Assembly (NCBI GenBank): GCA_035946625.1
Contig: DASYZE010000042.1
Coordinates: 7,065 to 71,064 of the forward strand
Direction of reading: 5' to 3'
Source: Terriglobia bacterium
GTDB taxonomy: Bacteria; Acidobacteriota; Terriglobia; UBA7540
DNA: 64,000 nucleotides
Of the stretch, positions 31,407-47,782 are shown one piece after another. The notes below the pieces were generated by a model that made no database searches, had not been told where the DNA came from, and saw only the letters and a program-made list of their open reading frames with translations. A program made the translations under genes and the position numbers. Positions within the stretch are counted from its first letter, which is position 1; each line of letters opens with the position of its first letter.

Positions 31407-31832
31407 CTAAGGATAAAGCCTATAAAGCAGCCAGTAAATCACCACTCCTGTAACGGAAACATAGAGCCAGGCCGGGAACGTCCAACGGGCGATGCGCCTG
31501 TGAAGGTCGAATCGCTTCTTCCAGGCGCGATAGAGCGTGGTGAGGACCAACGGAACAATCAGCGCCGCTAATATGGTGTGTGAGCCAAGCAAGGCAAAAT
31601 AGAACGGACGAATCAAGCCCAGCCCCCTGAAGTGTGTGACCCCATGTTGAACGTGGTACCAGAGATAGCAGACAAGAAAAAGGGAGGAAGTCCCAAACGC
31701 GGATAGCATGCAGATTTTATGAGCGAGGATGCGTTTGTTCCTGACGAAAAAATAACCCAAGGTCAGCAAGACCGCGCTGGCGGCATTCAGCGAGGCGTCG
31801 ATAGCGGGAAAGTCGGAAAGTTGAAGGGACAC
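31407..31832 (-). CDS. DUF420 (CtaM-like) membrane protein
   Basis: Four TM helices with AIDASLNAASAVLLTLGYFF and HRRIARWTFPAWLYVSVTGVV, typical of DUF420. Last gene of the oxidase string. Confidence 0.75.
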   Translation of the reverse strand: MSLQLSDFPAIDASLNAASAVLLTLGYFFVRNKRILAHKICMLSAFGTSSLFLVCYLWYHVQHGVTHFRGLGLIRPFYFALLGSHTILAALIVPLVLTTLYRAWKKRFDLHRRIARWTFPAWLYVSVTGVVIYWLLYRLYP

Positions 31833-31946: not shown

Positions 31947-32216
31947 TTATCTGGGGCCTTCGCCGGCAGGTTTATCTGGTGGCTCGCTGGAGGGAGGTTT
32001 CTTGTGCCTATACTCCAATATCTGCTTCAACTCGCCCGTGTAAAACGACCAAACCACCATCAACACGAAGAGGCCGCCGATGGTGGCGCAAATCAAGCTC
32101 AGCGAAAGACCGTCCAGGGTGAGAAACTGGCCCGACACCACAAGATAGCCACACACGGCCATCGAGATCAGTCCGACGACAAGACAAAATGCCAGTAGGA
32201 GGAGACTTTCAAGCAT
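31947..32216 (-). CDS. small 2-TM membrane protein (hypothetical)
   Basis: MLESLLLLAFCLVVGLISMAVCGYLV...ICATIGGLFVLMVVWSFY plus a Pro-rich tail. Start uncertain (32216, 32270 or 32327). Confidence 0.35.
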   Translation of the reverse strand: MLESLLLLAFCLVVGLISMAVCGYLVVSGQFLTLDGLSLSLICATIGGLFVLMVVWSFYTGELKQILEYRHKKPPSSEPPDKPAGEGPR

Positions 32217-32341
32217 GGAAGTTCGTTCCTTGACCAGGGTGATAGCCTGAGGATCATGACGCTCAGCCATCGGTTGTCTAAGAGGATTTTGTTGTTTCGC
32301 CCTGGGCGATATCCGCAAATCTTTCAATTGCCTGGCGGCGC

Positions 32342-33277
32342 CTATTTTAAAACCTTATCCAGAATCATGAGGCCAAACACCAAAGGCAGATAAAAAACCG
32401 AAGCCATTAACAGGCGCCGGGCCAGCAACTTGGATCTGACCACCGAGGTCAAAACTCCGCAGTACAAAATGCTTAGTCCGAGCGCGAGTGTCCCGAAAAA
32501 ATATAACCAGCCCATTTGGCCCAGCCAGGTGGGGAGCAAGCTGACCGGCAACAGGGCCAACGAGGTCACCAGGATCTGCCGCGCGGCCTTTCGCCCTTGC
32601 GGGTCATCGAGCGGGAGCATCAAAAGACCCGCCCGCTCGTAATCCTCCCGGTACATCCAGGCGATGGAAAGAAAGTGTGGGAACTGCCAGATAAAGAGGA
32701 TGGCGTAAAGGATCCACGCTTCAAGATTCAAGGAACCGCGTGCGGCTGCCCATCCGATCAATGGTGGCATGGCGCCGGGGAAGGCGCCCACCAAAGTGCA
32801 GTAAGTGGTTTTCCGTTTGAGTGGAGTGTAAAGCAGCAGGTAGCTGGCGAGCGTGAGCATCGCCAAGCCGCTGGCCAGAAAGTTGGCAGCCCACCAGAGA
32901 TATAAACCCCCGGCAACGGAAAGAACAATCCCAAACCACAGGGCTTCTGGAGCCGAAAGCCTTCCCGAGGGCAAGGGTCGATTGGCTGTTCGCCGCATGC
33001 GGGCGTCTGACACGCGTTCAAACCATTGGTTCAGCGTCGCCGTGCCACTCGCCACCAGCAGGGTGCCGGCGAGAGTGTGAAACAGGAGCAGATAATTCAT
33101 GGCGCCGCGCCAACCCAGATAGAAACCCGCCAGCGAGCTGGCCACCACCAGTGAATTGACTTCTGGCTTGGTGAGCGTCCAATAGTCAGCGACTTTGCTG
33201 CGCCACCTGGCCACGACTGCGCGCGGCCGCGGATTCACCGCGGCTGCCACCGTATTGTCCACCACAATACTGCCCAT
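32342..33277 (-). CDS. ctaB: protoheme IX farnesyltransferase (heme O synthase)
   Basis: UbiA-family motifs (NQWFERVSDARMRRTANRPL, YREDYERAG) and 8-9 TM helices. ATG 33277 avoids overlap with ctaA. Confidence 0.9.
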   Translation of the reverse strand: MGSIVVDNTVAAAVNPRPRAVVARWRSKVADYWTLTKPEVNSLVVASSLAGFYLGWRGAMNYLLLFHTLAGTLLVASGTATLNQWFERVSDARMRRTANRPLPSGRLSAPEALWFGIVLSVAGGLYLWWAANFLASGLAMLTLASYLLLYTPLKRKTTYCTLVGAFPGAMPPLIGWAAARGSLNLEAWILYAILFIWQFPHFLSIAWMYREDYERAGLLMLPLDDPQGRKAARQILVTSLALLPVSLLPTWLGQMGWLYFFGTLALGLSILYCGVLTSVVRSKLLARRLLMASVFYLPLVFGLMILDKVLK

Positions 33278-33287
33278 TAAATTTCCT

Positions 33288-34211
33288 TCAAACCGCCACA
33301 TTCTCCCGCATTGAAGAGAGCTCGGGGGCCGAGTCAGGCACCGCCACAAAGCGATAAGTCTGATAGGTTAGGGCCAAACTTGCCGCCAGAACCAACGCGC
33401 CCACGGCCACGTGCGTGGTGGTGACCAGAACCACCGGGGGCAAAGGCTGGGGTGCATTTTGATTGGTCCAGACTTCCCAGTACGAGCCAACGCCGAGGGC
33501 TACCTGCACCACCAGAAGGCCGGTGAGGAGCCAAATCGGCCGAGTCAAGCGGCGTTCGGTTCGAAATTCGGAGAGCACGCGCACCAACATCCAAAGCACC
33601 GCGATGGTCACCAAGCCCGCGCCCACCACGTGCGGGATGATTCCAAATCCATGATGCCGGAAAGCCGCACCCACCATCAACTGAAGAAATATCAATGCGG
33701 TGGTCGCGGTGGCCAGGCGCCGCAAAGAAATCGTTGAGGTTTCTTTTACCTTGGGCTCGTCCCAACGCCAGTCCGCCTGGGTAAATAATGCGAGGCTCAC
33801 CATAATGCAGAAAAATGCCTGGGCCAGGCAGGCATGAGCCACGGAAACGTCCACGGGCAAAAAGAAAAGAACGGTAATCCCGCCCAGAATGGCCTGAGCG
33901 ATGATGGTGAGAACGGAAATCGCGCCCAGGCGCCGTACCCAGCGTCGCGGCTCGCTGCGCCACAGCCAGACCGCGAGAATCAGAGTGAAGATCACGACGG
34001 TCCCCGCCACCATGCGGTGGCCGTGCTCAAATTTAACCCCCCCCACCATGCGCGGCATGCGAAAGGTCCCAAACGAAGTCGGCCAGTCCGGAACGGAAAG
34101 GCCGGCGTCGTTGGAGGTGACCAGCGCGCCGGCGATAATCAAAATGAAAGTGGCGGCGGCAACGAACGTCGCGTAGCGGTGCAGCCATCGTTGCTGTAAG
34201 GTCTGAGCCAT
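33288..34211 (-). CDS. ctaA: heme A synthase (COX15/CtaA family)
   Basis: Eight TM helices with His pairs (FEHGHRM, AFRHHGF, TTHVAVG) as in CtaA. Confidence 0.8.
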   Translation of the reverse strand: MAQTLQQRWLHRYATFVAAATFILIIAGALVTSNDAGLSVPDWPTSFGTFRMPRMVGGVKFEHGHRMVAGTVVIFTLILAVWLWRSEPRRWVRRLGAISVLTIIAQAILGGITVLFFLPVDVSVAHACLAQAFFCIMVSLALFTQADWRWDEPKVKETSTISLRRLATATTALIFLQLMVGAAFRHHGFGIIPHVVGAGLVTIAVLWMLVRVLSEFRTERRLTRPIWLLTGLLVVQVALGVGSYWEVWTNQNAPQPLPPVVLVTTTHVAVGALVLAASLALTYQTYRFVAVPDSAPELSSMRENVAV

Positions 34212-34219
34212 TTTCGAAA

Positions 34220-34507
34220 CTATGCTCTCCAAGGCGCGGCCGCCACGTTCGGCATTTCCTCATTGGCCGGATCCTGGTGAATCCCAGATCCTTCATCGGT
34301 CCTGGTGTTAAAGCTATTCCGGCGGCGGAACGCCACCCCGAATATCAAAATAAACATCAAAAGAGTGGGAAATATCATCACCAGAACACCGGTCTTCAAA
34401 GCCTGCAACATCCCCGGAGCCTGCGTGGCGGCGTTCTGATAACAAGCAGGACACATCTGCGCGAACGCCACGCTGGGGGTGGCAAGCGCGGCAAATCCCG
34501 CTGCCAT
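34220..34507 (-). CDS. small hypothetical protein with signal-like N-terminus, CxxC and one TM helix
   Basis: MAAGFAALATPSVAFAQMCPACYQN...GVLVMIFPTLLMFILIFGVAF. The ORF-track start at 34669 would translate the repeat region. Start uncertain. Confidence 0.4.
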   Translation of the reverse strand: MAAGFAALATPSVAFAQMCPACYQNAATQAPGMLQALKTGVLVMIFPTLLMFILIFGVAFRRRNSFNTRTDEGSGIHQDPANEEMPNVAAAPWRA

Positions 34508-34524
34508 TCGAGCCGGAATTTTCC

Positions 34525-34579
34525 AAATCTGAGATCGGAAATCTGAGATTTGAAATCTCATGATCGGTTTTTGAAATCC
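34525..34579. repeat. stuttering word repeat (tctgagat / ttgaaatc) with a local palindrome
   Basis: aaatctgagatcggaaatctgagatttgaaatctcatgatcggtttttgaaatcc, which contains the near-palindrome gagatttgaaatctc. Confidence 0.7.
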
Positions 34580-34691
34580 ACCCTTCACCACTTGATGTCT
34601 CTCTCGGTTCGCCTTGCCGTTTTTAATTTTCTCACGCCCCGTTCTCAACCTTCTTAATTCATCATTCATAATTCAACCTTCATACATTTCT

Positions 34692-35006
34692 TCAATGCAC
34701 CTTCATCACCAGAATGCGCAAACTGTCGGGAAATACCACAAACAACATGCCCACCACAAAGAGCAGCGCCGGCATCAAGGTCAAAATCAGGCTTCGGCGC
34801 TCGTACCGGAGGTGCATGAAGTAGGCGATGATCAATGATGCTTTGATGAGCGAGAGGCCCATCAACAGGGTCAGCATCAGCTTCAGCTCCAGTTGCGCAT
34901 AGGCCAGGAAGACCTCCACCCCGGTGAGTCCCAGCAGCGAAAACCAGACAGTGAATGTCACCTTCTTGCTGATTTCATTGTGGGCGTGTTCCATGGTTGC
35001 GTTCAT
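34692..35006 (-). CDS. ctaF: cytochrome c oxidase subunit IV (prokaryotic COX4 family)
   Basis: 104 aa with 3 TM helices and position after subunit III. TFTVWFSLLGLTGVEVFLAY resembles COX4_pro. Confidence 0.7.
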   Translation of the reverse strand: MNATMEHAHNEISKKVTFTVWFSLLGLTGVEVFLAYAQLELKLMLTLLMGLSLIKASLIIAYFMHLRYERRSLILTLMPALLFVVGMLFVVFPDSLRILVMKVH

Positions 35007-35124: not shown

Positions 35125-35769
35125 TCATCCTATTCTTGCCGACAGCAAATAGACCAGGGGGAAGATGAACATCCACACCAGGTCAACGAAGTGCCAATAC
35201 AGTCCGGCCACTTCCACTACTTCATCGTTGTACTTGCCCCGCGCCGTGCCGAATGCCACCACGGCCAGATAAACGACGCCGATGGTGACGTGAGTCATGT
35301 GCAGCCCAGTCAATCCGAAAAATGTGGCGCCGAATAGCGGTGTGCCCCACGGATTCCCCCAGGGTGTCACGCCCTGGTGAAACAGTCCAAACCACTCGCG
35401 CAGGTGGAGGACGTCAAACGTCACCCCCCCCATCAGGGTGGCCACCAGCCATCCGGCCGCGCGGGAGCGAATGCCCATCTTGGCGGCGCGCACGCCCAGC
35501 ACCATGGTGACGCTGCTGGTCAGCAGGACCAGGGTCATCACGGTGGCGTTGATGACGCTGGCTGATTCAAAAGGCCTCGGCCATGCTTCCGTCGACGTGC
35601 GCACATAACTATAGGCCACCAGGAGAGCTGAGAAGGTGATGGCATCGGAAACGATGAACAACCACATTCCCAGCTTATTCGAACCGATTGCGTACGGAGA
35701 CCCGCCCCCGGACCAGATCGATTCGTGGCCGCCCTCATGGGCGGCTAGATCTTGAGCATGGCTCGACAT
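35125..35769 (-). CDS. ctaE: cytochrome c oxidase subunit III
   Basis: Heme-copper oxidase subunit III-like helices (GLHMTHVTIGVVYL, YWHFVDLVWMFIFPLVYL). Confidence 0.85.
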   Translation of the reverse strand: MSSHAQDLAAHEGGHESIWSGGGSPYAIGSNKLGMWLFIVSDAITFSALLVAYSYVRTSTEAWPRPFESASVINATVMTLVLLTSSVTMVLGVRAAKMGIRSRAAGWLVATLMGGVTFDVLHLREWFGLFHQGVTPWGNPWGTPLFGATFFGLTGLHMTHVTIGVVYLAVVAFGTARGKYNDEVVEVAGLYWHFVDLVWMFIFPLVYLLSARIG

Positions 35770-35770
35770 C

Positions 35771-36442
35771 CTATAACCTCACCGTGAGCAAGAGTAGGAG
35801 ATAAATCCAAAGTCCGTCCATAAAATGCCAGTAAAGGGCAGTCACATCCACTGCCACACGCTTTTTCAGTCCGGCAGCCAATCGCGGAGCCTGCCCCACG
35901 AGGTAGCAAAGCGCGATGACGCCACCCAGCAGGTGGAGCCCGTGCGCCGCCGTCAGCAGGTAGAAGAACGAACTGCTGGGATTGGTGGAAAGATATACGC
36001 CATGCGACGCCAGCTCGCGCCACGCCACCAGTTGACCGCCAATGAACGCCACGCCGAGGATCGACGTGACCTTGAGCCAAATCTTGAATTGACTGGCTCG
36101 GCCGGCTCCCAGGGCCCGGCGCGATATTTCGAAGGCGACGCTGCTGGCCAGCAGGATTAGAGTATTGAAATAAAGAATGCGTGGTAGCGCAATCGCGGCC
36201 CAGTCGGACGACCCGCCCTTGCGGACGATCAGCGCGCTGGTGAACGACGCGAACAACATCACAATGGCAACCAGCGCCATCCACATGCCGGTGCGATAGG
36301 TTTGTGCCGGCACACTCCAATCCCGGTAATCTCTGCCGCCATACCCTCCGTACCCTCTTCGGCCGAAACCACTCCCGTTGCCACCGGTCGAATCGCTCCC
36401 GGGGGGGGTTGTGAGCCTTGGCGGAGTTAGTACGGTGGCCAT
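35771..36442 (-). CDS. second cytochrome c oxidase subunit III-family protein
   Basis: AAHGLHLLGGVIALCYL and LYWHFMDGLWIYLLLLL, with a Gly/Tyr/Arg-rich N-terminus. ATG 36442 preferred. Confidence 0.8.
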   Translation of the reverse strand: MATVLTPPRLTTPPGSDSTGGNGSGFGRRGYGGYGGRDYRDWSVPAQTYRTGMWMALVAIVMLFASFTSALIVRKGGSSDWAAIALPRILYFNTLILLASSVAFEISRRALGAGRASQFKIWLKVTSILGVAFIGGQLVAWRELASHGVYLSTNPSSSFFYLLTAAHGLHLLGGVIALCYLVGQAPRLAAGLKKRVAVDVTALYWHFMDGLWIYLLLLLTVRL

Positions 36443-36505
36443 TTCCAAACCCATCAGAAAGCGGACGAGGGAATCAGTAAACCCCTCCAAAAATTTATTT
36501 CAACC

Positions 36506-36534: not shown

Positions 36535-38316
36535 TTATTCCGCCGGCACTATTTCCGGCGAATCCTGCATGATGAAATCCTTCTCGGCGCCGGGTACGCC
36601 AAATTCATAAGCTCCGTGATAGACCACCGGATGTTTTCCGGCAAAATTGTCAAAGGGAGGCGGCGATGGAATTGTCCACTCCAGCGTCGTCGCCTCCCAC
36701 GGATTCTCGGAAGCCTTGCCACCTTTGAACATGCTCCAGAAAAGATTGACCACGAAAATCAGTTGCGCGCCCGCGGTGATGAAGGCCGCATAGGACATGA
36801 ACATGTGCAGGTCAATAATATGCGGCGTATTCAGGAAATCGACTTCCGTGAACTGGGAGTACCTTCGTATGTTGCCCGCCACGCCCAGGAAATGCATGGG
36901 CATGAAGATGCAATAGACACCCACAAAGGTAATCCAGAAATGAATTTTGCCCAGGGTTTCGTTCAGCATGCGGCCAAACATCTTGGGGAACCAGAAAAAC
37001 GTTCCGGCGAACATCCCGAAGATGGCGGCCACGCCCATCACCAGGTGGAAATGGCCGACCACGAAATAGGTGGCGTGCAAAGGAACGTCCACCGGGGGCT
37101 GGGCGAGGAACAATCCACTGAGTCCGCCGCTCACGAAAAGCGAAACGAACCCGATGGAAAACAGCATGGCGGAAGTCATTCGCAGTCTGCCACCCCATAG
37201 CGTTCCCAACCAGTTGAAAGTCTTGATCGCACTCGGCACGCCGATCGCCATGGTCATCATCGAAAAGGCAAAGCCGGAATAGGGGCTCATCCCACTCAGG
37301 AACATGTGGTGACCCCAAACCATAAAGCCGAGGAATCCGATGGCCATCATGGCGTAGACCATGGCCTTGTAACCGAAGATGGGCTTGCGCGAAAAGGTTG
37401 AGATGATGTGCGAGGTCATTCCCATCCCAGGCAGGATGGCGATGTAGACCTCCGGATGGCCGAAAAACCAGAACAAGTGTTGCCAGAGGAGTGGCGACCC
37501 GCCGCTGTGTGGAATGATTTGATCGCTGACCACAAGGCCGGCGGGGATAAAGAAACTGGTGCCGCCCAACCGGTCAAGGAGCAACAAGACGCCGGCGGCC
37601 AGAAGAACGGCGAAAGAAAGAAGCATCAGGACGGCGGTGATCAGCCACGCCCATGCGGTGAGAGGGAGACGGCTCAAGGTCAATCCGCGAGCGCGAAGAT
37701 CCAGGGTGGTGGCGATGAAATTCAGGCTGCCCAAAAGCGAGCCGAGGCAAAAAATAGCAATTGAAACAATCCAGAGGGTCTGGCCCATGCCCTCTCCGGG
37801 CCCGGCGGCGGTGCCGATGGCGCTTAAAGGCGGATACGCCGTCCACCCCGACAAAGGCGGGCCATCGGTGATAAAGAAAGTGCTGAGGAGAACCACAAAG
37901 CCTACAAAAGTCGTCCAGAACGAAAGCATGTTCAGTGTGGGGAAGGCCATATCCTCCGCGCCAAGCTGAATGGGCAATATATAGTTTCCAAACCCGCTTT
38001 GGGGCGCCGTGGTGAGCACAAAGAAAACCATCAGAGTTCCATGCATGGTCATGAGAGAAAGATAATATTCCGGGGTCATCACGCCGCCAGGGGCGCCGTT
38101 AGGAGAGAGCTTTTCGAGCAGCGGCATGTGGGCGCCAGGCCACACCATGTGCCAGCGCATCAAAACGGACAGGATGATGCCCACAAAAACTGACGCCAAC
38201 GCCAGGAAGTAATACTGTTTCCCGATCACCTTGTGATCGAGACTGAAGATGTACTTCCGGATAAAACCGGTGGGCGCCGTGTGATGGTGAACGGCCTCCG
38301 CGTGCGCATCTGCCAT
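36535..38316 (-). CDS. ctaD: cytochrome c oxidase subunit I (A-type heme-copper oxidase)
   Basis: 593 aa with 12+ TM helices. WFFGHPEVYI, the HH pair (VWGHHMF), and VVGHFHLVM His ligands. Confidence 0.95.
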   Translation of the reverse strand: MADAHAEAVHHHTAPTGFIRKYIFSLDHKVIGKQYYFLALASVFVGIILSVLMRWHMVWPGAHMPLLEKLSPNGAPGGVMTPEYYLSLMTMHGTLMVFFVLTTAPQSGFGNYILPIQLGAEDMAFPTLNMLSFWTTFVGFVVLLSTFFITDGPPLSGWTAYPPLSAIGTAAGPGEGMGQTLWIVSIAIFCLGSLLGSLNFIATTLDLRARGLTLSRLPLTAWAWLITAVLMLLSFAVLLAAGVLLLLDRLGGTSFFIPAGLVVSDQIIPHSGGSPLLWQHLFWFFGHPEVYIAILPGMGMTSHIISTFSRKPIFGYKAMVYAMMAIGFLGFMVWGHHMFLSGMSPYSGFAFSMMTMAIGVPSAIKTFNWLGTLWGGRLRMTSAMLFSIGFVSLFVSGGLSGLFLAQPPVDVPLHATYFVVGHFHLVMGVAAIFGMFAGTFFWFPKMFGRMLNETLGKIHFWITFVGVYCIFMPMHFLGVAGNIRRYSQFTEVDFLNTPHIIDLHMFMSYAAFITAGAQLIFVVNLFWSMFKGGKASENPWEATTLEWTIPSPPPFDNFAGKHPVVYHGAYEFGVPGAEKDFIMQDSPEIVPAE

Positions 38317-38455: not shown

Positions 38456-39292
38456 TCACTGCGACGCCGCCTGGTCTTGCAGCCACTTCTCATAATCTGC
38501 TTCGGTCATGACCTTCAAAAATGCCCGCATCTTGTAATGTCCTAGCCCGCAAAGCTGCGTGCAGACGATTTCGTAAGTTCCGTTGGGCAATTTTGGGCTG
38601 CTGCTGTGATTGAGGGCGTCCGGGGTGGTGGTGAAATGGATGGGAATCTCGAGTCCCGGAACCAGGTCCTGGTGCACCCTCAGCTCGCGAACATAGAACG
38701 AATGGCCCACGTCCTTGGAGCGCAGGATCAGCTCGATTTCCCTGTTCACGGGAATGCCCAGCGTGGCGGTCACAATGTCGTCCTTGGCAACGGCGTCGTG
38801 ATCCCGGTCGAGACCAAAGAAATTTCCCGTCGCGTCGTTGATCAGGTTGACGTGGGTGGGACCAAATTGTCCGTCGGGGCCGGGATAGCGAAAGGACCAG
38901 GCGAATTGTTGTCCCTGCGCCTGAATCCTCAGCGCGCCCGGCGCCGCGCCGGTGAAATGCATCGCCGCCCAGATGCGGTAGCCCATCAAATTCAGGCCAA
39001 TAAACAAAATCGCCGCTGCTGTGGTCCACATCGATTCGAGCTTGTTGTTCCCGTGCGAGTAGATGACCTTGCGGCCGTCGCCCCGATCGCGGTACTTGTA
39101 AACGAACCAGGCCAGGCCGAGTTGAGCGAGGACGAAAATGATGCCGCAAAGGGTGAGCGTCAATATGAACTGCTGGTCCACCGCAGCACCGTGGGTTGAA
39201 ATGGAGGGAGGAAACCACCAGATGTGCGCCGCGAATATATATACCGTTACGACCGTGATCAGCGCCACTACCAGCGCGAAGGCCAGCGCCAT
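38456..39292 (-). CDS. ctaC: cytochrome c oxidase subunit II (CuA, no fused cytochrome c domain)
   Basis: Two N-terminal TM helices and a CuA site (H...CTQLCGLGHYKM). The protein ends about 25 aa after the CuA motif and has no CxxCH. Confidence 0.9.
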   Translation of the reverse strand: MALAFALVVALITVVTVYIFAAHIWWFPPSISTHGAAVDQQFILTLTLCGIIFVLAQLGLAWFVYKYRDRGDGRKVIYSHGNNKLESMWTTAAAILFIGLNLMGYRIWAAMHFTGAAPGALRIQAQGQQFAWSFRYPGPDGQFGPTHVNLINDATGNFFGLDRDHDAVAKDDIVTATLGIPVNREIELILRSKDVGHSFYVRELRVHQDLVPGLEIPIHFTTTPDALNHSSSPKLPNGTYEIVCTQLCGLGHYKMRAFLKVMTEADYEKWLQDQAASQ

Positions 39293-39306
39293 AAGTTCTC
39301 CTCTTC

Positions 39307-39471
39307 AAAAGTAGACAGTAAACAGTAGTCTGTAGACAGGGTTACGGAATTGTTTTTATAGCTCAAGACTCAGGGCTGATTTCCAAGCACACTCCACGGC
39401 GCGAATCTCATCGATCCGGTCTTGTTTGTTGCTCTTCCCAGTCTACTGTATACGGTCTTCTGTCTACTTTT
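39307..39471. repeat. inverted word-repeats bracketing the cupredoxin|ctaC spacer
   Basis: aaaagtagacagtaaacagtagtctgtagacag (39307-39339) versus cagtctactgtatacggtcttctgtctactttt (39439-39471). The terminal 12 nt are perfectly complementary. Confidence 0.8.
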
Positions 39472-39475
39472 CTAT

Positions 39476-40258
39476 TCAGCCCTTGAAACTAAAGTCCACC
39501 GTCTTTGATTCCTTGGGTGCCACGGTTACTTTTTGTTCTTGCGTCCCAAAAGTGGCTGACCATGCCCCGAGGGTATAGTCGCCCGGAGGAAGCCCTTTAA
39601 TCGTGAACGTGCCATCGCTCCCTGAAACTGCGAAGAGAGGATTCTTGGTCACTCCGATGTAAGCCCTCATCCAGGGGTGTTGGTTGCACTTTACCGGGAT
39701 CATGATTTCCGAGCGGGCAAACGTCTTATCCAGCGCCGGTGCGCCGGGGGCCTGGGACTCATTCCACTCGCGATTGTCCTTGGGCTGCGGGTGGATATTG
39801 TGCGTGGTGGCATCACTGCTGACGATGTGCAGCGTCTGGTCCACTTGCACCCCCACCACGTGGGGTTGGTACATGCAGCCATTCTGGTCCAGGGTCACGG
39901 CCTCGGTAGGCGTGGGCCAGGCGTATTTGTCCGCCCCATCTTTCACATAAACGAAAACGTTGGGCAGCGTTCCATTTTCATTTACTTCGCCGTCTTCCAC
40001 GTGGACAGGGGACTTGTGCTTGGCCACGCACACCGGGTCCTGATCCATATGAATCACGGCCAGCTTGGGCTTGGCGCCGGTAAAAGTAATTTTACCCGTC
40101 ACCGTACCCACCGTGGCTTGATCGACAGGCGTACCTGCAGGCGCGGTGGCGGTCGCCGCCGGCTGCTCGGTGGTTTCCGGCGCCTTCTCGCTGCTACAGC
40201 CAAACATTAAAATCGTTGTGGCGATAATCGAGAACCCTATCATCAATTTCTTGTTCAT
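39476..40258 (-). CDS. lipoprotein with an amicyanin-like type-1 copper (cupredoxin) domain fused to a CarboxypepD_reg-like beta-sandwich
   Basis: Lipobox LMFGC. THNIH-(34 aa)-CNQHPWM parallels amicyanin PHNVH-(35 aa)-CTPHPFM (His/Cys/His/Met ligands). The C-terminus GTFTIKGLPPGDYTL is CarboxypepD_reg-like. Confidence 0.7.
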   Translation of the reverse strand: MNKKLMIGFSIIATTILMFGCSSEKAPETTEQPAATATAPAGTPVDQATVGTVTGKITFTGAKPKLAVIHMDQDPVCVAKHKSPVHVEDGEVNENGTLPNVFVYVKDGADKYAWPTPTEAVTLDQNGCMYQPHVVGVQVDQTLHIVSSDATTHNIHPQPKDNREWNESQAPGAPALDKTFARSEIMIPVKCNQHPWMRAYIGVTKNPLFAVSGSDGTFTIKGLPPGDYTLGAWSATFGTQEQKVTVAPKESKTVDFSFKG

Positions 40259-40309: not shown

Positions 40310-43300
40310 TTAATGAGCTTTTACCAGCATTCCGATCAGCGTTGGCCGGGCATGGGCATTCGGTCCTTCCTGTTTCTCGGTCGTCTGCTTCATGCTGTTC
40401 GCACTGAGTCCGGTGAGTTTGCGTTGTTCTTCCGGCGTAATCTCAAACATATAACGAACCAGCAGGTCGGCCTGATCGCCCGTATATCCGTTGAAGATGG
40501 GGGGCGTGGGGCCGGCAAAAACATTGTGCCCATCCTGGGTCTTAAAGAGACCGGAGGGCATGGCGGTGCCCGGGCTGATCATGGCCGGGTCGAGAATCCA
40601 ATGCTTGGTCCAATCCGGCTTCAACCGCTCCGGCGCCAGCAGGAAATTGGGCGCGGTGGCAAATTTATCGTGGGTCGCATCGCCCGTGGCGTGGCACTTC
40701 AGGCACGGAGCCGCCCGGCTGGTGAACAGCGCTCGCGCCATTTCCAATTCCTTGGGAGTCAATGGATCGAGCCGGGGCGAAATGTATGGCATAGGTTGGC
40801 TGGACATGGCTTGGAAGAATCTCACCAGTTTGCGCACTTCGATGGGTGAGAAGTAGAAAGTCGGCATCCTGACTTTCAGGTACGGACGCACGCCGTCGCG
40901 ATCCGTGTCCGTGTCGCTCATGGCGGGATTGGAAAGGAACTTCGCCAGCCATTCCGGATTTACCCGCGCCCCTTCGGTGAGCAATTTGGGCGGAAGCTGA
41001 TCCTTCCATTCCGGCGTTTGATAGCGCGGGATATCCATCAGCACCGAATCCTGGCCCACTTTGAATTGGTGGCAGCCCTCGCAATTGTATTTCTTGACCA
41101 GCCACCATCCGTCTTGAACGTCCCGGCGCTGATCGGCGGGCAGATACCAATAGCGTTGGGGAATTTCCGAAGTCACGCTGCCCATCAGGAAAGTGGTGAG
41201 TTCGGAAATCTGCTTTTGGTCGGCGGGCGCCAGGTCGGGCATGCCTTCCGTCACTTTGGAGCTGACGGGCTCGAAGAAGTCGGGCATTTTCAGTTCTTCT
41301 GCTTCCGTCTTAATCATGCCCTTGTCATACATTTCCGGCTTGGCCAGCTTGTGTTCGAAAAAGCCCTTGTGGCTGTACCAATCTTCGTTCTTGGCTTCGC
41401 GAATGTAGAGGGCAAAGTCAATCTGCTCCAGAGGCTTGCTGCCTTCAGCGGTAAGCTCCGTCCCGATTCTCCCTTCGTCTTCCATACCCTCAATTTCGTG
41501 GCAGCCCGCGCAACCATAAAACCGGATTTTCTTTTTGCCCTCTTCCTTCAACTTCGGATTGTTCATGAAGGGCGCCGCGGCGTAGGTCGCATCCGGGCGC
41601 TTGAGAGTCTCGAGGTAACTGGCGATGTCCCGCGCTTCATCCCAGGAGAGTCGCAGGTTGGGCATCACCGTCATCTGCTCCACCACCATCTCGTGGCCGT
41701 CGTTCGGACACTTGGTGTGGTTTAAGTCAAACGTGTAAGGCGGCAGGCCGTGCTTCTTGTAATCTTCATCCGTAATATCTCTTTTCTCAAAGGGGCAATA
41801 AGGGCGGGTGCGCTCGCGCGGGTTATGAATCCAGCGCACCAGGAAATCGTAATTGTCCTTTTCACCCACCCGGGTCAAGTTGGCGGCGAACCAGCCGCCC
41901 ACCTGGTTGGCGCCTTCGCCCACCGAGTGGCAGCCCATGCAGCCGCGCGTCTCAAAGCTTTCCTTGCCCTTCACCGGATCGCCCGGCGCCTGGTGAGACA
42001 GGGTGGTCTGAATCGCCGTCTGCCAAAGGTAAGCGGAAATATCCTCAATGTCGTCATCGTCCAAGCGGAATCGGGGCATCTTGGTGGTGGGCCGCCAGGC
42101 GTGAGGATTCTTCAGCCACACCGGAATCCATTCCGGCCGAATCTTTACCCGGACTTCCTTCAAGTCCGGGCCGACTTTCTTGCGGCCCATCATCAGGTAC
42201 TTGGCTTTCACTTCGAGCTGGTCCAACTGCATGGAAACCTTGCTGGAGGCGACCCGCAGCGCGTCCGCATCGGTGTAATCCTGGCGCGCGGTCGCGTTGT
42301 CGGCAGCGTGGTCGCCCGCGTCGATATCCCGCTGCGCGTTGCGCAGATCATCGGCGCGTTCCGTTTCCATCTGCAAAATTTGCTGCTGATTGGCGACGAG
42401 ATCTTCGGGCTCCGAATCGTATCCCTGGAAGCGATGGCAGCCGATGCAGCCTTTCCACTGGAGAAGCCGCTTGCCCTCGGTCAACTCCGGCGCGTGGTCC
42501 ACGACCATGTCGGACGCGTGGCACTGCTGGCAGCCGGCCTGCATGTTGGCTTTGTGGTAGAGCGGCCAAAGCCAGTGCTCGTATTCTCCGTGGCCCATCG
42601 CCACGCTATCCACTTGCATCCCGTTGCCGTTATGGCACGGCGTGCAGCCATATTTATCCGGATCGTGAATTTGAAGCAACTCCATGTCCGGATGGCTGGT
42701 GAACGCCGCGGACATGGGATCCTTATCGCCGCCCATATTCTGGCGGGTCAGCAGCACCGGCTCGCGAATCCCCAGGTGGCACGATTCGCAACGGTCCACA
42801 ACTCCGGCGTCCGGGATGTTGATCTGCTTAATCTCGATGGCCATCGTCTCGGCCTTATTCAGCAATCCCCGCAACTGCTCGGCGCTGAGGCCATTCAAAT
42901 GGTCGTGGAGATAGGCCCTAAGTTTTTTCGCCGCCTCGCCCTGAGGCTTCAGGATGTCACCTTCCTGCTGCTGCAGTTTCCCTTTTTCGGTCTGTAGGTT
43001 GGCGAACTCGTTTTCCAGCTCCTCGAAGGTGAACGTTTTCCCGGCGAAGGAAGGCCCGTTGAGCGTGAATGGGCCCTTCTTGTACATATCCAGATTGTGT
43101 TCCAGCGACGTTCTGCCCGGCCCGTCGGGGGTATGCTCGGCCACATAGATCATGGACCCGACCCGGGCCCGCTCGTTGGTCAATGTCCCGAGAACCGCGG
43201 CAATTTTGCCGTCAATGGCGGCGGTCTGCTCGTGGATTTGCGTCAGTTGTGGCGCAGCCGCGTCATGCGCGTCCTTCACTTGTTTTTCCAGCGCCTGGTA

Positions 43301-43534
43301 GTCGGGAGAATTCTCGATGGCCTTTTCAGCTTTTTCCTGCCGGGGAATCTCTTTTTTCAGGAGGGACGCGTAAAGCGTGGCAAATCGACGCTCGTAACCC
43401 TTCCACGGCCTCAGGCCGAAGAACTCGTCGTAGAGCGACCAGCTCAAACTGAAGATCAGGAGGAACGCCGCGATCACAAAATAGCCGGCCAGCGAACGGC
43501 CAACAATAGGGTCTTTCTCGGGGGCGTCAGGCAA
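40310..43534 (-). CDS. membrane-anchored octaheme c-type cytochrome (1074 aa)
   Basis: N-terminal TM helix plus a coiled region. Eight CxxCH: CESCH, CTPCH, CQQCH, CIGCH, CMGCH, CAGCH, CEGCH, CLKCH. Several class-I-like modules end in MPxF/L...YL. Confidence 0.85.
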   Translation of the reverse strand: MPDAPEKDPIVGRSLAGYFVIAAFLLIFSLSWSLYDEFFGLRPWKGYERRFATLYASLLKKEIPRQEKAEKAIENSPDYQALEKQVKDAHDAAAPQLTQIHEQTAAIDGKIAAVLGTLTNERARVGSMIYVAEHTPDGPGRTSLEHNLDMYKKGPFTLNGPSFAGKTFTFEELENEFANLQTEKGKLQQQEGDILKPQGEAAKKLRAYLHDHLNGLSAEQLRGLLNKAETMAIEIKQINIPDAGVVDRCESCHLGIREPVLLTRQNMGGDKDPMSAAFTSHPDMELLQIHDPDKYGCTPCHNGNGMQVDSVAMGHGEYEHWLWPLYHKANMQAGCQQCHASDMVVDHAPELTEGKRLLQWKGCIGCHRFQGYDSEPEDLVANQQQILQMETERADDLRNAQRDIDAGDHAADNATARQDYTDADALRVASSKVSMQLDQLEVKAKYLMMGRKKVGPDLKEVRVKIRPEWIPVWLKNPHAWRPTTKMPRFRLDDDDIEDISAYLWQTAIQTTLSHQAPGDPVKGKESFETRGCMGCHSVGEGANQVGGWFAANLTRVGEKDNYDFLVRWIHNPRERTRPYCPFEKRDITDEDYKKHGLPPYTFDLNHTKCPNDGHEMVVEQMTVMPNLRLSWDEARDIASYLETLKRPDATYAAAPFMNNPKLKEEGKKKIRFYGCAGCHEIEGMEDEGRIGTELTAEGSKPLEQIDFALYIREAKNEDWYSHKGFFEHKLAKPEMYDKGMIKTEAEELKMPDFFEPVSSKVTEGMPDLAPADQKQISELTTFLMGSVTSEIPQRYWYLPADQRRDVQDGWWLVKKYNCEGCHQFKVGQDSVLMDIPRYQTPEWKDQLPPKLLTEGARVNPEWLAKFLSNPAMSDTDTDRDGVRPYLKVRMPTFYFSPIEVRKLVRFFQAMSSQPMPYISPRLDPLTPKELEMARALFTSRAAPCLKCHATGDATHDKFATAPNFLLAPERLKPDWTKHWILDPAMISPGTAMPSGLFKTQDGHNVFAGPTPPIFNGYTGDQADLLVRYMFEITPEEQRKLTGLSANSMKQTTEKQEGPNAHARPTLIGMLVKAH

Positions 43535-43567: not shown

Positions 43568-44509
43568 CTAAACGTTAAACCACCACGTGACCCAGACGTA
43601 CTTGATGCGAAACACCAGCCGCAAAATCATCTTGACGGGCAACAACAGCATGGTGATCAAGAAAAACTGCAAGGTGAGGTACTGGATCAAGCTCATCCTC
43701 TGGTAAATCTTTCGGCTGAATTCCGTCAGGGTAATGACCCGGTGAAATAAGTAGCCGGCGGCGCCAAAATACAGGCCCATCACGATGGCGCCAAACACCG
43801 CCTTGCCCGCCATGGTGGTGATGCCAAAGATGTCGGGCAAATCGCGATTGACTTCATACACCACCCGGCTCGGATCCCAAGTCTGTCCCGGCCAGAACCA
43901 CATCCACCCCGGGCCTCGAATAAACGTCCCCACCAGAACCATCAGGACCCAGAGAAAAAGGAAGCCAAAACAGAAGGTGGCGATGGAAAACCGGCGCTGC
44001 TTCCAAGTGTAGTACCCCGAGCCCAATGGATTGGTATCCACATACGGGATAATCATCAGCCCGAGAACGATCAAGGTGGGCATCACCACGCCCGCGATCC
44101 AGGGATCGAAATAAACCAGCATCTCCTGAAGTCCCAGGAAATACCACGGCGCCTTGGCGGGGTTCATGGTCAGGTTGGGATTCGCCAGTTCTTCCAGGGG
44201 AGCGTTGAGCGTAATCGACCAGACAAACAAAATAATGGTGACTATTATGGCCGCCAGAAATTCCACCCGCATCAGGTACGGCCAGGTCTGGAGTTCCTTG
44301 GCCCAGCCCGACTTCCACGGATAATTTTTCCGGTGGGCGGTTTTGGCCAGTTGGGGATCGCTCTCGAGCTGCGCAATCAGGCGGTCATTGGCAAAAGCCT
44401 GGCGGAAAGCCATCCAGCAGAAAAATGGGATTAGGAAAATGAGCGCGACAATCGGAATATTATCCGGCGCCGAGCTGATTTCCCAAAGTTGGTGCCAGTC
44501 AAAACCCAT
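43568..44509 (-). CDS. cytochrome b C-terminal half (b6f subunit IV-like), extended
   Basis: PAKAPWYFLGLQEML corresponds to the PEWY/Qo motif of the cytochrome b C-terminal domain or subunit IV. Extra TM helices at both ends. Confidence 0.8.
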   Translation of the reverse strand: MGFDWHQLWEISSAPDNIPIVALIFLIPFFCWMAFRQAFANDRLIAQLESDPQLAKTAHRKNYPWKSGWAKELQTWPYLMRVEFLAAIIVTIILFVWSITLNAPLEELANPNLTMNPAKAPWYFLGLQEMLVYFDPWIAGVVMPTLIVLGLMIIPYVDTNPLGSGYYTWKQRRFSIATFCFGFLFLWVLMVLVGTFIRGPGWMWFWPGQTWDPSRVVYEVNRDLPDIFGITTMAGKAVFGAIVMGLYFGAAGYLFHRVITLTEFSRKIYQRMSLIQYLTLQFFLITMLLLPVKMILRLVFRIKYVWVTWWFNV

Positions 44510-44530: not shown

Positions 44531-44643
44531 AGTAGGTGGTAGGTGGAATGTGGTATGTAGGGATTCCAAACCCATGTGGTCCACAGAACCCAAGTACAAC
44601 CTTCCGCGGCCTTCCCTGCCTACCACCTGCCACCTACCCCTAC
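44531..44643. repeat. inverted word-repeats bracketing the cyt b|subunit IV spacer
   Basis: agtaggtggtaggtggaatgtggtatgtaggg (44531-44562) versus ccctgcctaccacctgccacctacccctac (44614-44643). Shares aggtggtaggt and ggaatgtgg with 25654-25680. Confidence 0.8.
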
Positions 44644-45547
44644 AATTTCCTCTCCGGCTTGATCTCCGACTCCAGCATCACGGGCGCCGGGCCGGAAATT
44701 CCACCGTCTTTTCGCACCCGCCAGAAATGCACGCCCATAAAAGTTCCGGCAATCAGCGGGATGGCAATGCAGTGCCAAATGTAAGCGCGCAGCAGCGCAT
44801 TGGCATCCACAATCGACCCGCCCAGGAGGGCAAAGCGGACGTCATTATAAGGAGTCATCCCCAACTGCCGCCCCAGCGGTCCCTGGTAGCCCAAGCCGGG
44901 CGTATTCTGCGCCATGGTGGTTCCCACCGTCACCGCCCAGAATCCCAGTTGGTCGTCGGGCAGAAGATAGCCGGTGAAGGAGAGCAGCAGGGTCAGCACC
45001 AACAGGACCACGCCCACGCACCAATTGAATTCGCGCGGCTTCTTGTAAGAGCCGGTGAGGAAGACGCGGAACATGTGCAGCCACACGGCGATGACCATCA
45101 GGTGGGCAGCCCAGCGGTGCATGTTGCGCAAAAGCTTTCCGAACGGGACGTCGGCCATCAGGTAAATGATGTCGTTGTAAGCCTGCCCCTTGGTGGGGTG
45201 GTAGTAGAACATCAGCAGGACGCCAGTGATGGTGAGAACGATGAAAAGATAAAATGTGATGCCGCCCATGCCCCAAGTGTAGTTGTAACGGACTGCGTCC
45301 CGATTCACCTTGGCGGGGTGGAGATGCAGGAAGACGTTGGAGAGGACTCCTAGGGCCCGGCTGCGCTCGCTCTCGTCGTGCTTGACGCGAAAAATTGATT
45401 TATAAAGTTGGGTCTTTTCGGGCTTCTTGAGCGCTTCTGCTTCTTCGATGACCCTCTCCTTCAAGGCCTTCGTGTCACTGAGAAGCTTCTCCACAAAACC
45501 GGGCGACTCTTTCTTTTCGGGAACCTCGGGGCTTGGACGATCAGCCA
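44640..45547 (-). CDS. cytochrome b N-terminal half (b6-like, four-helix di-heme core)
   Basis: His pairs in RNMHRWAAHLMVIAVWLHMF and AYIWHCIAIPL...GVHFWRV. The heme ci Cys position reads WGMGG (no Cys). ATG 45547 preferred. Confidence 0.9.
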
Positions 45548-45563
45548 TGAATCTCCTCAAGAC

Positions 45564-45736
45564 TAATGACGAGAGATGAGTGACGAGCATGGACCGGAAG
45601 CTTTTGGTGTTCGCCGATCAATGCGTTACCTTCACACGTTTGCTTCTCGAAATTACTGACTTAAAAAGCCTGGCTCTGTTGGGTAAAGGTGTTTTCTTAT
45701 TTCCTGCCCGTCACTTGTCACTCTTCACTGGTCACT
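45564..45736. repeat. inverted word-repeats bracketing the Rieske|cyt b spacer
   Basis: aatgacgagagatgagtgacgag (45564-45586) versus cgtcacttgtcactcttcactggtcactg (45708-45736). Confidence 0.75.
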
Positions 45737-45743
45737 GCTTTTC

Positions 45744-46442
45744 CTACACCGGGATGAACGCACCCGGATCGTTGAATTCGTCCCGGCCGCCTTTGCTGCG
45801 ATCCCACATAAAAAGTATGCTTTTGTCCGCGATGATCTGGCCCTGGGCGTTCAACTCAACGTGCGCGCGGTCCATGGGCCGAGGGGCCGGCCCTTCAAAA
45901 TTGATTCCTTCCGGGGTATAGCCGCTGCCGTGGCAGGGGCACTTGAATTTGTTTTCAGCCGGCTTCCAGTCCGGCGTGCAGCCGAGGTGCGTGCACTTGG
46001 CGAAAATGGCAAAAATCTGAGTGGGTTCCCTCACCACGTAAATGCGGCACTCTTGCTTGAACCGGTCGCTGACTCCGAGCACGTAATCGGACGGGTAGCC
46101 AAGATTGCAAATGTTGCTGGGCTCAAAGAGGGCGCGCGGGAAAAAGAACCGGAGGAACATCAGGAAATTCGCGGCCAGGAATGCCGCCATGCACGCCCAG
46201 GTCAGGCGACGGCGCAATTGATTGGGGTCAGGCTCTGTGGTTTCCTTCGCCGGGGCGGCTGCGGGCGCCGCAGGTTTGGGTGCCGGGGGAGTGGTGGCTT
46301 TCGCTGCCGCTGCTGGAGGAGCCGCCGGCTTGGCGGTTGCAGGTGCGGCGGATTTTTCCACCGGCTTCGCCGCCCCAGTCCCCGCTGCTGCAGCGGGGAG
46401 TTTTGAAGGAACTGGGGCGCTCGGATCTTCAGGATTCGACAT
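45744..46442 (-). CDS. Rieske [2Fe-2S] protein of the bc-type complex
   Basis: CTHLGCTPDW...CPCHGSGY cluster boxes. RRR-containing leader plus TM helix, preceded by an Ala/Pro/Lys-rich extension of about 75 aa. Confidence 0.9.
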   Translation of the reverse strand: MSNPEDPSAPVPSKLPAAAAGTGAAKPVEKSAAPATAKPAAPPAAAAKATTPPAPKPAAPAAAPAKETTEPDPNQLRRRLTWACMAAFLAANFLMFLRFFFPRALFEPSNICNLGYPSDYVLGVSDRFKQECRIYVVREPTQIFAIFAKCTHLGCTPDWKPAENKFKCPCHGSGYTPEGINFEGPAPRPMDRAHVELNAQGQIIADKSILFMWDRSKGGRDEFNDPGAFIPV

Positions 46443-46513
46443 TACTCTTTACCCTTCGTTTTTATTATATGCCCGCAGAGAAAATCTTCGACGCAAAACT
46501 TAAGAAATGGAAA

Positions 46514-46541
46514 TCTATATGATGGCCGCTGAGTCTGTCAA
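46514..46541 (-). promoter_or_regulatory. candidate sigma70-type promoter for the respiratory string
   Basis: On the minus strand: TTGACA (46541-46536), a 16 nt spacer, TATAGA (46519-46514). A perfect TATAAT also lies at 46469-46464. Pattern match only. Confidence 0.25.
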
Positions 46542-47672: not shown

Positions 47673-47782
47673 CAAATTTTAATCTTACCACAGACACTGC
47701 CCAAGCATCGGGCCGCACCACGGCCCATGTCTTGCGCAATTGAATTCCCACCGCATGCTGCACTAAGATGGGTGAGCACAAC

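Follow-up and report, generated by a model that had tools for sequence, protein, structure and literature searches.

How do electrons reach the CuA centre of a terminal oxidase whose subunit II lacks a haem c domain, when no small cytochrome c gene is found in or beside the operon? This question is raised by a respiratory gene cluster of a Terriglobia bacterium (assembly GCA_035946625.1, contig DASYZE010000042.1), of which a stretch of 64,000 nucleotides, called here the window, was analysed. The genes of a Rieske/cytochrome b complex with an octaheme cytochrome c subunit (the bc-octaheme complex) are followed there by those of an aa3 oxidase, and between both sets lies, on the reverse strand, a gene for a precursor of 260 amino acids (39476..40258, stop codon included). 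The gene was taken from the list of open reading frames (ORFs) with an ATG start, and an AGGAAGG ribosome-binding site is placed 9 nucleotides 5' of this ATG. Judging from the sequence and from the predicted structure, we hold it highly probable that the product is a lipoprotein type-1 cupredoxin. That it serves as a tethered carrier or subunit between the bc-octaheme complex and the CuA of the aa3 oxidase is the role that we favour, with moderate confidence, on the basis of synteny and homology.

One line of evidence for the cupredoxin is its putative copper site. The motif THNIH occupies residues 152-156 and CNQHPWM residues 191-197, with exactly 34 residues between them. A preliminary description of the locus had likened this arrangement to the ligand set of amicyanin, quoting a sequence that is identical to PDB 1aac, and the parallel has been borne out by alignment of family profiles. 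In hhalign (92% probability) His153, Cys191, His194 and Met197 are in register with His53, Cys92, His95 and Met98 of amicyanin. Thus, the codon at 39800..39802 (reverse strand, as for all features below unless stated otherwise) would specify the N-terminal type-1 copper ligand, His153, followed by Asn154, and the segment 39668..39688 the ligand loop C191-N-Q-H194-P-W-M197. Electron-transfer cupredoxins characteristically have an Asn immediately behind the first of their His ligands. When the window is translated in all six frames, the composite pattern HNxH-(30-40)-CxxHxxM is met once, for about 0.0004 occurrences expected from composition.

Conservation was studied in two sets, one of 125 cluster representatives with less than 50% mutual identity and another of 80 genome loci aligned with the query (81 sequences). 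H153, N154, C191, H194, W196 and M197 are invariant in the second set, and in the first one they are retained in 123, 119, 118, 122, 122 and 118 representatives, respectively, which means 94-98% retention for the four ligands and Asn154. Other histidines of the protein (His81, His133 and His156) were considered as a second metal site and discarded, as they are not conserved; at position 81, for example, 44 of the 81 sequences have Asn.

The predicted fold agrees with the ligand pattern. An AlphaFold model built from 30 homologues has a mean predicted local distance difference test score (pLDDT) of 80 and a predicted template modelling score of 0.76. Its top PDB matches in Foldseek are amicyanin, plastocyanin and pseudoazurin, each with a probability of 1.00; the template modelling (TM) score is 0.57-0.60 against amicyanins 1id2 and 4p5r (for the latter, root-mean-square deviation of 3.0 Å over 90 columns), and the target TM score is 0.71 against plastocyanin 1bxu. 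Single-sequence phmmer searches of the PDB gave nothing meaningful, and a family profile was needed. Such a profile, made from 43 relatives of 35-53% identity, found the Nitrosopumilus maritimus "Blue (Type 1) copper domain protein" 5fc9 with E=9.5e-6, a cupredoxin domain at the C-terminus of 9cck with 4.9e-5 and, at about 1e-3, amicyanin. On the grounds of the Foldseek, profile and hhalign results, the cupredoxin domain can be delimited to residues 111-204 (39647..39928).

The mature protein contains a second fold, and the way in which both are combined is unusual. The preliminary description had proposed that a CarboxypepD_reg-like domain is fused at the C-terminus. The domain is indeed present: Pfam PF13620 matches the native protein with 38.7 bits (cut-off 32.3) at residues 209-257. 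However, this is not a simple C-terminal fusion, and the native protein covers no more than profile positions 31-80 of 82. When residues 47-63, 96-110 and 205-260 were joined in a chimera, the score rose to 52.4 bits and the match extended to positions 1-80 of 82, whereas the C-terminal piece alone gave 42.1 bits over positions 32-80. Positions 1 to 30 of the profile come from two strands that lie far upstream, at residues 51-60 and 102-107. The former is contained in residues 47-63 (40070..40120, with GTVTGKITFTG; pLDDT of 92-97 at the strand) and the latter in residues 96-110 (39929..39973, with NVFVYVKDG; pLDDT of about 95), while the remaining CarboxypepD_reg strands are those of residues 205-260 (39476..39646). 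The gain obtained with the chimera, together with the split strands, indicates that the sandwich hosts two insertions, which are a loop of about 35 residues and the whole cupredoxin. Therefore, the cupredoxin is nested within the CarboxypepD_reg sandwich instead of forming a separate N-terminal domain. Foldseek alignments to small sandwich proteins run over 226-253 columns for targets of 145-155 residues, as would be expected of a split sandwich.

The first insertion loop (residues 64-95, 39974..40069) contains conserved M71 and D74 and a near-invariant C77. This cysteine is found in 122 of the 125 representatives and C128, within the cupredoxin, in all 125; none of the 81 aligned sequences lacks either of them. 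From this we infer a C77-C128 disulfide.

At its N-terminus the precursor has the features of a lipoprotein. The signal peptide and lipobox, read from the sequence, comprise residues 1-21 (40196..40258): MNKK, with a KK n-region, is followed by a hydrophobic core and by ILMFG-C21. The lipobox LMFGC indicated in the preliminary description fits the pattern, and Cys21 is kept in 78 of the 81 aligned sequences and in 100 of the 125 divergent representatives. Lipid modification of Cys21 is therefore predicted. The following Pro/Ala/Thr/Glu-rich stretch (residues 22-46, 40121..40195) is predicted to be disordered, with a pLDDT of 31-42 over residues 21-40, and its length and sequence are variable among homologues. 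We read these approximately 25 residues as a flexible tether for the folded part of the protein.

The genes that flank the cupredoxin gene define its possible partners. Upstream in the direction of transcription are the four bc genes. The Rieske iron-sulfur subunit is the first gene of the operon (45744..46442, assigned by a library match), with a promoter-like site 5' of it (46541..46512). It is followed by a cytochrome b6-like N-terminal part (44640..45590; Pfam Cytochrome_B, E=7.9e-40), a cytochrome b C-terminal part resembling subunit IV (43568..44509; Pfam Cytochrom_B_C) and the octaheme cytochrome c, which has 1074 amino acids, eight CxxCH motifs and one N-terminal hydrophobic helix (40310..43534). 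Downstream of the cupredoxin gene is that of CoxB, subunit II of the oxidase (38456..39292; TIGR02866, PF00116). As had been stated in the preliminary description, this subunit ends soon after its CuA site: the motif CTQLCGLGHYKM is followed by 23 residues up to the C-terminus, and there is no CxxCH in the protein and no haem c domain. CoxA, subunit I (36535..38316), contains GHPEVY, so the oxidase is assigned to the A1 type.

The comparison with relatives shows which of these neighbours is the most faithful one. Among the 80 genome loci, the octaheme gene is the immediate 5' neighbour of the cupredoxin gene, in the same orientation, in 63 of the 69 that have room for it, and the complete set of four bc genes precedes it in 56 of 61. 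On the 3' side, the next gene is coxB in 17 of 75 loci, ctaA in 43 and ctaB in 2 (62 of 75 together); in eight of the remaining loci coxBA is divergent, upstream of the Rieske gene. In a reverse test, metagenomic loci were collected by means of the octaheme protein (40-89% identity, with enough downstream sequence), and the cupredoxin gene was the next one after the octaheme gene in 19 of 19. The gap between both genes has a median of about 80 nucleotides. On the other hand, the spacer between the cupredoxin gene and coxB varies from 21 to 534 nucleotides in relatives, is unrelated in sequence and is often strongly structured, with hairpins. Given the constant linkage to the octaheme gene and the variable spacer to coxB, the cupredoxin gene behaves as a fifth cistron of the bc operon. 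Linkage of the homologues to oxidase genes, as assumed in the preliminary description, thus holds for the bc-octaheme genes and for those of aa3 oxidase and haem A synthesis, although the tightest association is with the bc operon. Copies without nearby bc genes are found with ctaA-ctaB-DUF420 (L027, L038 and L081) or with coxBA (L044 and L082). The expected co-occurrence with a subunit II lacking a cytochrome c domain was also found, as 26 of 27 complete ORFs of linked CoxB have no CxxCH; in the single case that deviates, the gene is distant, of caa3 type and on the opposite strand.

One more locus extends this picture. In L021 (9911-16100), a paralogue with a signal peptide, without the lipobox Cys and with the four ligands kept, directly precedes genes for a pentaheme cytochrome c, a Tat-exported molybdopterin-like protein, a 4Fe-4S protein and an NrfD-type membrane protein. 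These genes form a module similar to alternative complex III or Qrc, which suggests that the family serves more than one quinol-oxidising complex.

The electron path that we propose is as follows. The Rieske/split-cytochrome-b core would oxidise menaquinol, and the Rieske centre would pass electrons to the octaheme c, as the membrane-anchored cytochrome c subunit. From there they would be transferred to the copper ion bound by H153, C191, H194 and M197 of the lipid-tethered cupredoxin, then to CuA of the A1-type aa3 oxidase without haem c domain, and finally through haem a and the haem a3-CuB site to O2. The cupredoxin might shuttle between the complexes on its tether, or it might be bound within a III-IV supercomplex as one of the subunits. 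Copper binding, location at the inner membrane, redox partners and direction of electron flow are all elements that we infer in this scheme. As a more tentative extension, to which we give perhaps one serious chance among several, the lipoprotein could be a fixed structural subunit wiring an obligate III-IV supercomplex of Acidobacteriota that has no diffusible cytochrome c, in which the sandwich would dock and the conserved Cys77-Cys128 pair would act as a staple. We know of no description of such a cupredoxin/sandwich architecture for any respiratory supercomplex.

Several observations weigh against the carrier role or against parts of it. The preliminary description had reasoned that the oxidase needs a separate donor. 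This does not follow, since the octaheme subunit has four class-I-like c domains that could reach CuA with no intermediary, and its C-terminal class-I haem domains could reduce CuA directly. Genes often found nearby, namely ctaA, ctaB, DUF420 and SCO1, belong to biogenesis, and they allow room for a role in assembly. No Pfam or NCBIfam cupredoxin model matches the protein, even when the isolated middle domain is searched at E<=10. The search with hidden Markov models (HMMs) suggested in the preliminary description has therefore given a divided answer, negative with curated models and positive with the family profile. The absence of curated matches reflects model coverage; the family profile does find type-1 copper proteins of known structure. 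In addition, the residue at position +2 after the lipobox Cys is Ser, Gly or Asn, never Asp, in the 81 aligned sequences. Lipoproteins of diderm bacteria with these residues may go to the outer membrane, so retention of the cupredoxin in the inner membrane is not to be assumed, and an outer-membrane location would be incompatible with bridging two inner-membrane complexes.

These points give rise to alternatives that have to be weighed against the carrier role. It could be that the protein is a true type-1 copper protein on a side branch of the bc complex, exchanging electrons with other periplasmic partners, such as another reductase or a reverse-flow input, while CuA would receive its electrons straight from the octaheme subunit inside a supercomplex. 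The direct reduction of CuA by the dihaem QcrC in actinobacterial III-IV supercomplexes is a precedent for this arrangement. It would also suit the gene order, as the tightest and least variable linkage is with the bc-octaheme genes (63 of 69 and 19 of 19) and not with coxB (17 of 75), the spacer to the latter (21-534 nucleotides) is variable and commonly has strong hairpins, and the L021 paralogue adjoins a different module of quinol-oxidoreductase type. Nevertheless, we consider it rather unlikely: copies that are parted from the bc genes stay with coxBA (L044, L082) or with ctaAB (L027, L038, L081), no alternative acceptor enzyme is conserved beside the cupredoxin gene, and a haem c domain is consistently missing from the CoxB proteins linked to it. 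Function as an assembly factor of the aa3 oxidase, that is, a periplasmic copper chaperone for CuA or CuB with a role like those of PCuAC or Sco, is a poorer candidate still. The biogenesis genes ctaA or ctaB are next to the cupredoxin gene in most loci, with DUF420 or SCO1 further 3', and the PCuAC fold is also cupredoxin-like. Against this, the residues that are conserved make up the classical His/Cys/His/Met set for electron transfer, with Asn behind the first His and a loop of the form C-x2-H-x2-M, and the site is neither of the Met/His-rich type of PCuAC nor the CxxxC...H of Sco. Neither the PCuAC motif H(M)x10Mx21HxM nor the Sco motif was found in the cupredoxin sequence, which has no match to the Pfam SCO1-SenC or PCuAC families either. 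Moreover, every one of the best matches, by structure or by sequence, is to an electron-transfer cupredoxin, and the gene is fixed behind that of the octaheme cytochrome.

The residues at position +2 make it necessary to regard an outer-membrane lipoprotein too, which would work outside the III-IV link, for instance in redox reactions with metals or with other substrates of the periplasm or the cell exterior, in the manner of rusticyanin or Laz. The latter, from Neisseria, is a lipid-anchored azurin of the outer membrane, and a heptahaem protein with tetratricopeptide repeats (TPR) is encoded divergently upstream of the operon, which could be taken as a further sign in that direction; a retention signal of Asp type is absent. 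Yet the rules of Lol sorting differ between species, every operon partner belongs to a respiratory complex of the inner membrane, and no gene for an outer-membrane cytochrome or porin is conserved alongside in the related loci, so we see little probability in this option. Least credible of all would be a structural beta-sandwich that binds no metal, with the ligand-like residues being coincidental or vestigial. Pfam detects nothing more than CarboxypepD_reg, and the NCBI family name follows this, but the four ligand positions rank with the best conserved residues of the family in over 100 divergent clusters, chance alone would yield the composite motif 0.0004 times and the fold matches cupredoxins. 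On balance, we still prefer the tethered carrier or subunit between the bc-octaheme complex and CuA.

The comparison with known systems situates this proposal. Amicyanin (MauC) of Paracoccus denitrificans and P. versutus is the best Foldseek match, sharing with the present protein the cupredoxin fold, the ligand order, the short C-x2-H-x2-M loop and the HN(V/I)H motif, with a spacing of 35 residues versus 34 here. In contrast, amicyanin is a soluble protein of 105 amino acids, encoded in the mau cluster, that takes electrons from methylamine dehydrogenase, whereas the protein described here has about 20% identity to it, a lipid anchor, a sandwich in which it is nested and a bc/aa3 operon as context, both in the window and in nearly all related loci. 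It is not an amicyanin orthologue. The closest solved relatives by profile are the Nitrosopumilus maritimus protein 5fc9 and the C-terminal cupredoxin of 9cck from the same organism, which have the ...SD..HN...C.xHPWM/R loop in common with it. They differ in being archaeal, soluble or a domain of a multicopper enzyme, with no sandwich host and no bc operon; in 5fc9, the axial Met position is aligned with Arg.

Functional precedents come from other proteins. Sulfocyanin (SoxE), halocyanin and auracyanin are membrane-tethered blue copper proteins that replace cytochrome c. They receive electrons from the SoxM Rieske/b complex, the bc complex of halophiles and alternative complex III, respectively, and pass them onward to a terminal acceptor; halocyanin and auracyanin A are lipid-modified. 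Plastocyanin is a further functional precedent. Unlike the present protein, sulfocyanin, halocyanin and auracyanin belong to archaea or Chloroflexota, have other ligand-loop lengths, are single-domain and are not encoded behind an octaheme c. AcoP of Acidithiobacillus ferrooxidans is a membrane-anchored cupredoxin from the rus operon, which also comprises cytochrome oxidase genes, and it interacts with both cytochrome c4 and the oxidase (PMC5982212). Its likeness to the protein discussed here lies in the membrane anchoring of a single cupredoxin domain, in the same proposed position in the chain and in having a partner of the multihaem cytochrome c class. The differences are a peptide anchor instead of a lipobox, a green copper site, a place in Fe(II) oxidation by an acidophile and the absence of CarboxypepD_reg; in PDB searches, AcoP gave no sequence match to the cupredoxin.

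As for the donor complex, the core formed by a Rieske protein, a split cytochrome b and an atypical octaheme c has been described in Nitrospina, Kuenenia and Methylomirabilis (PMC3578206). These operons have the same core as the one in the window, and their published description mentions no cupredoxin gene (PMC3578206). In a published metatranscriptome, an operon of the same type, for Rieske protein, cytochrome b6, subunit IV and multihaem c, is induced by oxygen in the acidobacterial metagenome-assembled genome (MAG) CO124 (PMC10564751, supplementary data 3). Complex III is given there as genes 1753-1756 only, and the gene after that of the cytochrome c, where the cupredoxin would be expected, is not mentioned (PMC10564751). 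Trojan et al. draw a cytochrome c between complex III and the oxidase in Acidobacteriota (PMC8407424). We also considered whether the bc1-caa3 "superoperon" of these authors is the same cluster and rejected it, as it is of petCAB type instead (PMC8407424). Our literature searches found no paper joining "cupredoxin" with "carboxypeptidase regulatory" and none on the cupredoxin-sandwich gene in Acidobacteria.

Blue copper proteins that are tethered to the membrane and join complexes III and IV are, therefore, a kind already known. What is new in the present one is the nesting in CarboxypepD_reg, the place behind an octaheme c, the spread in Acidobacteriota and the invisibility of the family to domain models and annotations. 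A first homology search gave 6746 hits for the cupredoxin-sandwich family, and a search of representatives gave 1139 clusters (50% identity) that cover the full architecture at E<=1e-30. The 80 genome loci are without exception from Acidobacteriota, namely Terriglobia, including Bryobacteraceae, Acidobacteriaceae, Sulfotelmatobacter and Solibacteraceae. When just the cupredoxin domain served as query, mainly N-terminally truncated gene calls were retrieved, and the only names from outside Terriglobia among them were one Pyrinomonadaceae MAG and one "Candidatus Omnitrophi..." MAG. When a cultured host was sought by a homology search from an Acidobacteriaceae copy, the entries found were MAGs and metagenomes only. 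The source databases call the family "carboxypeptidase regulatory-like domain-containing protein" (NCBI) or "plastocyanin" (JGI). Since no curated cupredoxin model matches, the family is hidden under the first of these names and is missed by genome inventories of blue copper proteins.

Some members have more complex architectures. P0121 (559 amino acids), P0132 (452), P0171 (852) and P0213 (613) are tandem duplications of the complete cupredoxin-in-sandwich unit or fusions to other regions, and JGI labels one of them as a serine/threonine protein kinase.

Acidobacteriota count among the most abundant bacteria of soils. If the protein is truly a carrier, one major branch of soil respiration would depend on copper at an extra step, with a bearing on copper limitation, redox tuning and respiration at low oxygen. 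Besides, a cupredoxin placed inside a transthyretin-like sandwich is an unusual architecture, which might be of interest to those who engineer copper sites in proteins.

Concerning the spacer between the cupredoxin gene and coxB in the window (39293-39475, 183 nucleotides), a long-range stem AAAAGUAGACAG...CUGUCUACUUUU was predicted, with a minimum free energy z-score of -2.0. A search of this spacer against Rfam gave no match, and the idea of a conserved RNA element was dropped, given that length and sequence are not kept among relatives. At this place, where the bc genes give way to the cox genes, there may be an attenuator or the boundary of a transcript. The equivalent spacer of L001 folds with -50 kcal/mol in 124 nucleotides.

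Other genes complete the surroundings of the cupredoxin gene. Divergently from the bc operon and upstream of it, on the forward strand, the above-mentioned TPR protein (47768-49372, 534 amino acids) has seven CxxCH motifs of c7/c3 type and its repeats at the C-terminus. On the oxidase side, coxA is followed by two COX3-like genes for proteins of 239 and 214 amino acids (36490..35771 and 35769..35125) and by coxD (35006..34692, COX4_pro). Each COX3-like gene matches only the C-terminal two thirds of the COX3 profile, and both are kept in related loci. Between coxD and ctaA lies an ORF of 149 amino acids with no Pfam match (34220..34669), which has one hydrophobic helix and a CPAC motif (..AQMCPACYQ..) and is found at the same position, with 32-68% identity, in the closer relatives (L001-L019); its product may be a thiol- or copper-handling factor for oxidase assembly. 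The genes for haem A synthesis, ctaA (34232..33288) and ctaB (33349..32342), are followed by an unassigned ORF of 126 amino acids (32327..31947) and by a gene for a DUF420 protein (31832..31407). The DUF420 gene ends the ctaA-ctaB cluster both in the window and in the distant relatives L081, L027 and L038, and in L081 and L038 a pair of ABC-2 type transporter genes is placed between ctaB and DUF420.

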